Shown: one piece after another, positions 4,842 to 5,607 of the stretch
Numbering within the stretch: position 1 is the stretch's first letter
Layout: every line of letters starts with the position of its first letter
DNA from: a virus
Taxonomy: Duplodnaviria; Heunggongvirae; Uroviricota; Caudoviricetes
Strand: one strand, 5' to 3'
IMG/VR virus record: IMGVR_UViG_2537561689_000012
Length of the DNA stretch: 6,123 nucleotides
Position numbers and translations under genes: made by a program
Notes under the pieces: generated by a model
Told to the model about the DNA's origin: nothing
Seen by the model: only the letters and a program-made list of their open reading frames with translations
The model's database searches: none

Positions 4842-4867
4842 AAAACTCTCCTGTTATTTCGAGCAGG

Positions 4868-4897
4868 ATGGTAACAATAGTTACATAGCAATGTCAA
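4868..4897 (-). promoter_or_regulatory. Putative PR-like promoter for the cro-like operon: -35 TTGACA (plus 4892-4897), 18-bp spacer, -10 TACCAT (plus 4868-4873), read on the minus strand
   Basis: Perfect -35 hexamer; the -10 matches 4 of 6 including T1, A2 and T6. Operator O1 lies in the spacer and -10. Predicted start about 20 nt upstream of the SD and ATG at 4841. Confidence 0.5.
4871..4884. promoter_or_regulatory. Operator O1: palindrome GTAACAATAGTTAC (GTAAC-N4-GTTAC)
   Basis: Perfect 5+5 inverted repeat, seen directly. One of three copies of the same palindrome in the window, all intergenic. Confidence 0.6.
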
Positions 4898-4918
4898 CCA
4901 TAGCAACATCACTTGGTA

Positions 4919-4932
4919 GTAACATTGGTTAC
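4919..4932. promoter_or_regulatory. Operator O2: palindrome GTAACATTGGTTAC, directly abutting the cI ATG at 4933
   Basis: Perfect 5+5 inverted repeat, centred 48 bp from O1. Its position at the repressor start codon suggests autoregulation and a leaderless or near-leaderless cI mRNA. Confidence 0.6.
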
Positions 4933-5607
4933 ATGAAAAACACTATCAGCGAACGTATTCGGAATCGTCGAAAAGACGTTGGATTAACCCAACAGCAGGT
5001 TGCGAAAGCAATCGGCATATCTCGTGTATCCGTAACAAAATGGGAAAATGGCTCTTCAAAACCTGACGGTGAGAATTTGCATCTACTGTCAAAATTGCTT
5101 TCCAAATCTCCTGAATGGATTCTTTATGGAAAGGACGGTCACGATAAAACCGATGATCTGCGTCTGAATCAGTATCCTTACATTAGTGACAACATCGCCC
5201 GGTTGCCCGTTTTAACGTGGGAACAGGCTGGTTATTGGGATATGAGTTGTCCAGTAACCGAGATTCCTGGCATTAAGAATTGGGTTGATGTCATGACAAA
5301 AACCGCTGAAAACTCTTTTTTATTGCATGTTGAGGGAGATGCGATGACAAACTCTAACGGCCTCCCAACCATCCCCGATGGATCTACCGTGCTGATCACA
5401 CCATGCTCAAGTAACATTAGAGAACTGGTGGGAAAAATAATCTTAATCCAATTGGAAGGAACGCCAAACGTAACACTAAAAAAAGTTGCGATTGACGGAC
5501 CAAACATCTATCTGTTGTCACTGAATCCGCTTTACAAACCCATCGAACTGAATGGTGGTTACACCATTAAAGGTAAAGTTTCACAAATACATCAATACTT
5601 AGACTGA
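4933..5607 (+). CDS. Lambda CI-like repressor (N-terminal XRE-type HTH plus C-terminal S24/LexA-like domain), 224 aa, with Ala at the catalytic Ser position
   Basis: HTH segment LTQQQVAKAIGISRVSVTKWENG. C-terminal domain aligns by eye with the lambda CI C-terminal domain (FLLHVEGDAMT... against FWLEVEGNSMT...; TLKKV against TFKKL; EQAGYW against VQAGMF). Start at ATG 4933 is chosen over the track's 4834 (a TTG), which would place both operators and the cro start inside the ORF. Confidence 0.85.
   Translation: MKNTISERIRNRRKDVGLTQQQVAKAIGISRVSVTKWENGSSKPDGENLHLLSKLLSKSPEWILYGKDGHDKTDDLRLNQYPYISDNIARLPVLTWEQAGYWDMSCPVTEIPGIKNWVDVMTKTAENSFLLHVEGDAMTNSNGLPTIPDGSTVLITPCSSNIRELVGKIILIQLEGTPNVTLKKVAIDGPNIYLLSLNPLYKPIELNGGYTIKGKVSQIHQYLD

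Follow-up and report, generated by a model that had tools for sequence, protein, structure and literature searches.

The cro-cI region of a viral sequence of 6,123 nucleotides (IMG/VR record IMGVR_UViG_2537561689_000012, Caudoviricetes; referred to at its whole length as the window) can be read as a lambdoid genetic switch built on GTAAC-N4-GTTAC operators, in which the cI repressor gene starts at the ATG at 4933 and is transcribed as a leaderless mRNA from a maintenance promoter (PRM) lying inside the operator OR3. We hold this reading, taken as a whole, to be probable, with due reserve. Attributes by which a lambdoid switch is recognised are present, i.e. divergent genes for a helix-turn-helix (HTH) and S24 repressor and for Cro, separated by a 91-bp spacer, together with palindromic operators lying over the divergent promoters and a second set at PL. 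An earlier note on this sequence had described operators, two lytic promoters and a probable leaderless cI transcript here; its observations were confirmed, and its interpretation is supported in part.

Comparisons were made across 247 related loci (contigs encoding homologues, together with three IMG/VR scans). Their cro-cI spacers take 101 distinct forms, and their repressors fall into 24 clusters that are 40-100% identical to the window repressor over the N-terminal 100 residues. Positions such as -62 or -14 are counted from the cI ATG, which in the window is that at 4933, and the coordinates of all features are collected in Table 1.

Operators and lytic promoters

Sites of the GGTAAC-N4-GTTACC type were sought in the window with GGTAACNNNNGTTACC, two or fewer mismatches being allowed, and three were obtained (OR1, OR3 and OL1) where 0.18 would be expected, a count that was reached in none of 200 shuffled controls. 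Agreement with the palindrome is complete in OL1, with one mismatch in OR1 and two in OR3. In each of the 247 loci the GTAAC-N4-GTTAC core of OR1 spans -62 to -49 without change of length, columns -65 to -49 holding about 2 bits each; that of OR3 occupies -14 to -1, again at constant length, in 247/247 loci and 101/101 distinct spacers. Weighted column information is around 2 bits across both of these strong operators and below 0.8 bit at -25 to -15.

Whilst the earlier note recognised two operators in this region, conservation in the family points to a third, degenerate operator (OR2) between them. Columns G-40, A-37, A-36, A-27 and C-26 of this middle block are each 100% conserved, the family reading is (T/C)(C/A)AA(C/A)-N4-(G/T)(T/C)(T/A)AC, and in many clades the right half is a perfect GTTAC (e.g. 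CAAACAACAGTTAC, in 25 spacers). In the window OR2 overlaps the -35 element of PR, and its centre is 23 bp from that of OR1 and 25 bp from that of OR3. On this sequence evidence the cro-cI spacer is one that holds three operators, 23 and 25 bp apart, and the sites called O1 and O2 in the earlier note therefore correspond to lambda OR1 and OR3. The two 8-bp direct repeats (CATAGCAA, at 4884-4891 and 4899-4906) to which that note also drew attention are present as described and do not form a conserved element: both copies are kept in 19 of 87 near-identical loci, the commonest variant being CATAACAA, and when the 91-bp spacer was shuffled 5000 times an exact 8-mer repeat turned up in 252 cases (5%). 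The repeat was rejected as a regulatory element and is judged to be a product of chance, its second copy merely overlying OR2.

The common architecture that had been claimed for the two lytic promoters was borne out, each sequence element being found in its place and the rule holding family-wide. PR is the sole promoter-like site returned by a consensus scan of 4500-6123, and scores 12.6 bits (family mean 8.2) with a sigma-70 matrix compiled from approximate consensus frequencies (our own values), making it the only strong promoter in the spacer. At PR, 92 of the 101 distinct spacers contain TGnTAC(C/A)(T/C/A)T, and with it the TG of an extended -10 element; the hexamer, which is always made from the distal half-site of the operator, is TACCTT in 70, TACCCT in 19, TACATT in 8, TACCAT in 3 and TACTCT in 1, and the -35 element (TTGACA, TTGCTA or TTTGCT) is positionally fixed. 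Of the 152 distinct regions that lie downstream of cI, 141 show the corresponding arrangement at PL (TTGACn, an operator-filled spacer and TAC(A/C)TT), with a spacer of 17 bp in 131; PL of the window lies below the threshold of the consensus scan because its -10 element matches at only three of six positions. From their sequences both would be classed as extended -10 promoters with A at hexamer position 2 and T at position 6, and from the spacing transcription is predicted to start near 4859-4861 at PR and near 5705 at PL. At either promoter the half-site GTTACC provides the G of TGn as well as the TAC of the -10 hexamer and the operator fills the spacer; a single repressor dimer would therefore cover spacer and -10 element together and so occlude the promoter.

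That these palindromes and promoter-like hexamers are a chance resemblance with no regulatory role is, in our view, scarcely credible. The general weakness of consensus matching is the only point in its favour, whereas three sites never occurred together in the shuffles, the sites fall exactly at the places of lambdoid OR and OL, and they keep their places in 24 divergent repressor clusters, in which the flanking spacer bases vary freely. The (G)GTAAC-N4-GTTAC(C) sequence would represent an immunity specificity not described in the literature found, a search on the GTAAC/GTTAC operator having returned nothing relevant.

Start codon and proposed promoter of cI

The cI product contains HTH_3 (E = 2.2e-16) and Peptidase_S24 (E = 1.1e-16) domains, and is related to lambda cI (E = 4.6e-14), the N-terminal domain of P22 c2 (E = 2.6e-12) and the 434 repressor (E = 2.7e-5). 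Gene callers predict cI lengths that vary from 219 to 249 aa across the family, and the RefSeq annotation, made with the Prokaryotic Genome Annotation Pipeline (PGAP), begins at 4891 to give a protein of 238 aa (WP_000103684.1; L001 6292-7008) that by our analysis is 14 codons too long. An ATG matching that at 4933 is present in 247/247 loci; three-nucleotide periodicity is seen in the family columns only from +1 of this ATG onwards; and 46 of the 101 spacers offer no alternative in-frame start upstream, 44 of these having an in-frame stop, while the upstream start, where there is one, wanders in position from -18 to -102. We therefore consider a cI start at 4933, lacking a Shine-Dalgarno sequence and contrary to RefSeq, to be strongly supported. 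The upstream starts at 4891 and 4834 were rejected on the spacer stops and the periodicity.

Because the operator fills -14 to -1, no member of the family has room for a ribosome-binding site before cI. In calculations of the anti-Shine-Dalgarno duplex energy of the 20 nt upstream, the cI ATG gave -3.1 kcal/mol (family mean -3.3), which 39% of random 20-mers equal and which is at the level of the window background (-2.55 +/- 2.58 kcal/mol), in agreement with the earlier description of an operator O2 that ends one base before the ATG with no Shine-Dalgarno sequence; it is the O2 core that stops on the base preceding the ATG. The same calculation for cro, where AGGAG is found at 4852->4848, gave -7.7 kcal/mol (family mean -8.8).

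The RefSeq model, in which cI starts at 4891 and the operator at 4918-4933 codes for ...SNIGY-M..., appears very improbable to us. PGAP annotates that start, the frame is open in the window and NIGYM is conserved among translated homologues; yet NIGY (AAC ATT GGT TAC) is the operator itself, conserved at all three codon positions, and the ATG at 4891 is the reverse complement of the PR -35 element (nTGTCAA). The model has moreover to contend with a start that is missing in 46/101 spacers and found elsewhere at wandering positions, with the lack of codon periodicity upstream of 4933, and with an N-terminal extension that diverges faster than the remaining protein, and 4891 is likewise without a Shine-Dalgarno sequence (+0.8 kcal/mol).

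With regard to transcription of cI, a hexamer TAAC(A/C)T occupies -13 to -8 in 101/101 spacers; no other -10-like hexamer on this strand is conserved, and the mean -10 score of TAAC(A/C)T, 5.06 bits, equals that of the PR -10. Within it T-13, A-12 and T-8 are invariant in the family, and T-8, the second base of the OR3 central spacer, is not an operator requirement because OR1 has A or G there and OL1 varies. A pyrimidine-purine step, C(-1)A(+1), lies 8 nt after the TAACAT hexamer of the window, and positions +4 to +7 of cI are AAAA, third codon position included. The distance from OR3 to the cI ATG is constant, whereas the gap between the PR -10 and the cro ATG ranges from 25 to 29 nt in the family. 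Initiation at a 5' terminus in E. coli needs an AUG start codon. The hexamer, its fixed spacing and the constant ATG are together what would be predicted of a cI mRNA that is leaderless or has a 2-nt leader: the maintenance promoter would use TAACAT within OR3 as its -10 element, with the first transcribed base being the A of the ATG or one no more than about 2 nt away, and ribosomes would begin on the AUG at the 5' end of the resulting leaderless mRNA, as they do with lambda cI. The leaderless cI of the earlier note thus gains strength from a conserved TAACAT 7 nt before the ATG, the transcript itself being one that we infer.

Several points weigh against this reading. The -35 element of the cI promoter is poor (ACCATA at 4897-4902, and ACAACA in the largest clade, matching at 2-3 of six positions), TG is found at -16/-15 in only 9 of 101 spacers, and the full promoter scores only about 1.2 bits with the matrix. 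TAACAT lies in an operator, so its conservation alone is no proof of promoter function; the spacer of OR1 is also conserved, and such conservation may serve to tune the affinity of repressor or Cro and not the action of RNA polymerase. Transcription might just as well begin at the A at 4931, with a 2-nt leader. OR2, centred at -32.5, would cover the -35 element, there is no lambda-style activating position (-42), and continued transcription of cI with OR1 and OR2 filled is not accounted for. No transcript data were found in the literature for this element or any family member, and a search for the switch or transcription-start data of phage ZF40, which carries a member of the family, returned nothing relevant.

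An alternative, which leaves the operators, PR, PL and the 4933 start unchanged, is that cI mRNA has a leader without a Shine-Dalgarno sequence; we regard this as unlikely, but as deserving to be weighed with care. The transcript would then originate further upstream, at some weak spacer promoter (e.g. with -10 element TACATA at 4882-4887 or CAACAT at 4904-4909) and/or solely at a YdaT-dependent PRE-like promoter some 300 nt upstream, ribosomes would load on an A/U-rich unstructured leader, and OR3 would be a roadblock or a mere Cro site. The poor -35 element of the leaderless promoter, overlapped by OR2, is in keeping with this, as is a plus-strand site with its -10 at -51 that scores slightly higher overall (1.72 vs 1.16 bits); a conserved YdaT box at -314 indicates a long-leader transcript in any case, and racR of Rac has three mapped promoters, one of them leaderless (PMC9638921). 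However, the -51 hexamer lies inside OR1, so that repressor blocking PR would shut it too, which makes it unsuitable for maintenance, and its -10 score is low (1.74 vs 5.06 bits); the stretch from -25 to -15, where other -10 elements would sit, is unconserved, and the rigid operator-to-ATG distance and the ATG in 247/247 loci would be left unexplained. Other plus-strand promoters were considered, both in the spacer and upstream in cro, and none is conserved save the weak one inside OR1.

Table 1. Coordinates of the genes and of the proposed regulatory elements in the window.
Feature	Position	Strand	Description
cI repressor gene	4933-5607	plus	224 aa; HTH_3 + Peptidase_S24; corrected start
OR1	4870-4885 (core 4871-4884)		GGTAAC AATA GTTACA; one mismatch to 16-bp palindrome
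OR2 (putative)	4894-4907		TCAAC CATA GCAAC; degenerate middle operator, from family conservation; overlaps PR -35 and second CATAGCAA copy
OR3 (O2 of the earlier note)	4918-4933 (core 4919-4932)		AGTAAC ATTG GTTACA; two mismatches; abuts cI ATG
Candidate PRM -10	4920-4925	plus	TAACAT; inside OR3; followed by 7-nt discriminator TGGTTAC and A of ATG
PR -35	4897->4892	minus	TTGACA; consensus scan
PR -10	4873->4868	minus	TACCAT; 18-bp spacer from -35
PR extended -10	4868-4876	minus	TGTTACCAT; TG at extended -10 position; from OR1 distal half-site
cro-like gene	4626-4841	minus	71 aa; Pfam P22_Cro, E = 2.9e-16
Candidate YdaT box	4619-4636	plus	TTGATTTTCATGAATCAT; cro stop / ydaT start junction
YdaT-type (cII-equivalent) gene	4204-4629	minus	
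Replication-initiator-like gene	3062-4138	minus	
Intrinsic terminator after cI	5613-5638	plus	AACCCGCA TTCAT TGCGGGTT, then TTTTC; perfect 8-bp inverted repeat
Candidate OL2	5650-5663		GTACCTTTTGCAAC; GTACC TTTT GCAAC; degenerate, 6/8 core positions; 32 bp upstream of OL1
PL -35	5670-5675	plus	TTGACT; 17-bp spacer
OL1	5681-5696		GGTAAC TCTT GTTACC; perfect palindrome
PL extended -10	5690-5698	plus	TGTTACCTT; hexamer TACCTT 5693-5698, TG 5690-5691

Proposed regulation and genomic setting

If cI is transcribed from a leaderless promoter inside OR3, the start at 4933 places the centre of OR3 at -7.5 and that of OR2 at -32.5. Because of its position at -7.5, occupancy of OR3 would have to repress: the operator covers the cI -10 element and start, so that Cro, or cI at high levels, would stop cI transcription (negative autoregulation), and PR would already be closed at lower levels of repressor by OR1 with the help of OR2. 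The autoregulation through O2 that the earlier note had suggested would accordingly take the form of repression, as implied by the geometry of the site. Lambda-style activation was rejected as a candidate, since placing OR2 or OR1 at -42 puts the transcription start inside the gene or in an unconserved stretch.

Establishment of cI expression may involve a separate promoter. The candidate box TTGATTTTCATGAATCAT differs at one position from the YdaT operator that has been published, TTGATT-N6-AATCAA (PMC9986795). Of 131 distinct upstream regions, 49 carry the same box between -312 and -316; two divergent clades are represented, in one of which cI is only ~48% identical. It is a possible PRE-like establishment promoter directed towards cI and antisense to cro, which would probably give a second, long-leader cI transcript during establishment; on such a transcript the cI AUG, unlike that of lambda, would still be without a Shine-Dalgarno sequence. 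A broader proposal, which we make tentatively and regard as possible rather than likely, is that family-wide the operator permanently replaces the ribosome-binding site, all cI transcripts, the long PRE-type one among them, being translated without a Shine-Dalgarno sequence, and that lambda-type positive autoregulation is absent, leaving negative autoregulation alone, because the operator array is one helical turn closer to the start than in lambda. If this were true, a structurally lambda-like switch would be running on different logic.

A further feature of the repressor concerns its S24 domain. Codon 137 of cI (5341-5343) specifies Ala in place of the catalytic Ser (VEGDAMT in the window vs VEGNSMT, with Ser149, in lambda); the QAG of the Ala-Gly site and the Lys, in KK, are kept, and the window sequence hence lacks the full combination of Ser/Lys dyad and Ala-Gly site that RecA-stimulated self-cleavage requires. 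Ala is found at this position in 85 of 87 window-like loci and in 4/4 Salmonella relatives, and Ser in 156/156 other family members. LexA S119A and lambda cI S149A are analogues for a non-cleaving repressor, and by analogy the window repressor should be unable to self-cleave and so should not be SOS-inducible.

Downstream of cI, a hairpin and T-run occur in related loci at the same place as the terminator of the window, which is the cause of a sub-threshold Trp_leader match; an Rfam scan of the whole window gave two sub-threshold chance matches only. A second good operator lies 32-35 bp upstream of OL1 in 64 of 78 spacings measured in relatives, and the candidate OL2 of the window is at the corresponding distance. 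In the PL leader a lone half-site, GAGTTACC, is present at 5747-5754, approximately 60 bp downstream of OL1. The 180 nt of this leader (5705-5885), from PL to the first gene, are ~88% identical in phages of other immunity types; the leader was considered as a structured RNA (nut- or put-like) and rejected as unstructured, with a z-score of +1.09.

The window is 100% identical to E. coli chromosomes (e.g. that of enterotoxigenic E. coli strain 120899), and the host element is a Qin/Rac-like defective lambdoid prophage cut short by the insertion sequences IS100 and IS3; NCTC9699 is another carrier strain. The prophage in strain 120899 terminates at these insertion sequences, and because it ends there the late region is absent and the element defective. 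In the window istB of IS100 (310-1092) and an IS3-family element (about 1300-2500) directly adjoin the DUF977 gene. From 2599 to 6123 the order is the DUF977 gene and the replication-initiator-like gene, both on the minus strand, followed by the YdaT-type gene, the P22-Cro-like gene, the 91-bp spacer, the repressor gene, the terminator, the promoter region and a ydfA-like DUF1391 gene.

Among 5426 complete E. coli genomes, 702 carry the cro-cI-PL module in full. Against isolated phages, megablast returned the flanking modules only and no record with the window cI or its operators, the closest phage repressor by tblastn being 43.5% identical, and a repressor scan of genome contigs gave two irrelevant HTH matches only. 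Homologues of cI found by protein search reach down to 44% identity, and the repressor family spans E. coli, Salmonella, Pectobacterium phage ZF40, Hamiltonella, Arsenophonus, Erwinia and others.

Inside the replication-initiator-like gene there are five copies of CGTGAC at a spacing of 10-11 bp (3698-3744) and three more at 3968-4004, adjoined by a short tandem repeat, ATCTGTATCTTT, at ~3661-3695. The window contains 11 copies of CGTGAC against 2.7 expected, a number reached in 0/200 shuffles, and they resemble the iterons of a replication origin placed inside the gene for its initiator, as is the case for lambda O.

If correctly read, the region defines an uncharacterised immunity specificity, GGTAAC-N4-GTTACC, in phages and prophages of several Enterobacterales including the isolated phage ZF40, and corrects a widely propagated start annotation, that of WP_000103684.1. 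It would be a compact natural fusion of operator, promoter -10 element and translation start in some 16 bp, a possible test case for leaderless translation and a possible orthogonal repressor/operator pair. The concept of how a lambdoid switch operates is unchanged by these results, which concern a switch of a well-known kind.

Comparison with known switches

The closest parallel in overall layout is lambda itself, with which the window shares divergent cI and cro genes, three operators, a PR occluded by OR1 and OR2 and a second operator set at PL beyond cI. Measured from the cro ATG, the operator centres lie at 36.5, 59.5 and 84.5 bp in the window and at 35, 59 and 82 bp in lambda; the -10 element and the cI ATG are 6-7 nt apart in both (TAGATT-TAACGT-ATG in lambda, TAACAT-TGGTTAC-ATG in the window), and the -35 element of lambda PRM is also weak (TAGATA). 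The leaderless cI transcript from lambda PRM has been mapped experimentally. The differences begin with the operators, 14-16 bp GTAAC-N4-GTTAC sites in the window and 17-bp sites in lambda, and extend to their distance from cI, the operator array of the window lying nearer to the cI ATG by 11 bp. OR3 is centred at -7.5 in the window and at -19 in lambda, and OR2 at -32.5 and -42 respectively, so that, because the ATG is closer, the lambda position for positive autoregulation is missing. Lambda PRE transcripts use a GGTGAT Shine-Dalgarno sequence, for which OR3 of the window leaves no room, the cII function is of YdaT type in the window, unlike that of lambda, and the catalytic Ser is replaced by Ala in the window lineage.

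The closest solved DNA-binding domains to that of the window cI are those of P22 c2 and 434, from which the window differs in its recognition helix (SRVSVTKWENG) and in its half-site (GTAAC). The operators of P22 c2 and 434 are short palindromes, in which affinity can be tuned by central bases that the protein does not contact.

Repressors of other prophages, too, are known to have leaderless transcripts. In CP-933P the paaR2 mRNA was established as leaderless by 5' RACE (rapid amplification of cDNA ends), N-terminal sequencing and mass spectrometry (PMC8630535, Jurenas et al. 2021). As in the window, a module of Cro-like and YdaT genes there faces the repressor gene across a spacer of ~95 bp with operators over both promoters; a PL-like promoter shares the operators, and a YdaT-activated PRE lies between ydaS and ydaT (PMC8630535). 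PaaR2 is, however, short and HTH-only, and a toxin-antitoxin pair follows it, whereas the window repressor is a full-length LexA-like protein, and the CP-933P operators are four 18-bp repeats of the GTTTAGTAA type, a specificity different from that of the window (PMC8630535). Rac, like the prophage of the window, is cryptic, its strongest racR promoter, PracR3, gives a leaderless transcript by primer extension, and 5-7 nt in front of the racR ATG there is a stretch that is A/T-rich and -10-like; RacR differs in having no S24 domain and an unrelated architecture, with nine monomer-type sites proposed and three racR promoters (PMC9638921).

In PY54 the cI mRNA starts at the AUG, as determined by RACE, and the OR3 adjoining cI is a target of Cro that blocks cI transcription (PMC4488713). 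PY54 and the window thus have in common a palindromic OR3 that directly adjoins the gene for the prophage repressor, whilst the two differ in repressor family and operator sequence, and in that cro of PY54 is also leaderless where that of the window has a predicted leader of 18-20 nt with AGGAG (PMC4488713).

The same switch layout as in the window is found in an IMG/VR contig (L142, 1100-1260) that is probably Pectobacterium phage ZF40, where GTAAC AATG GTTAC is followed by a middle site and then by GGTAAC GTTA GTTAC directly before the ATG. As an isolated temperate phage, ZF40 would provide a culturable system for the leaderless prediction.

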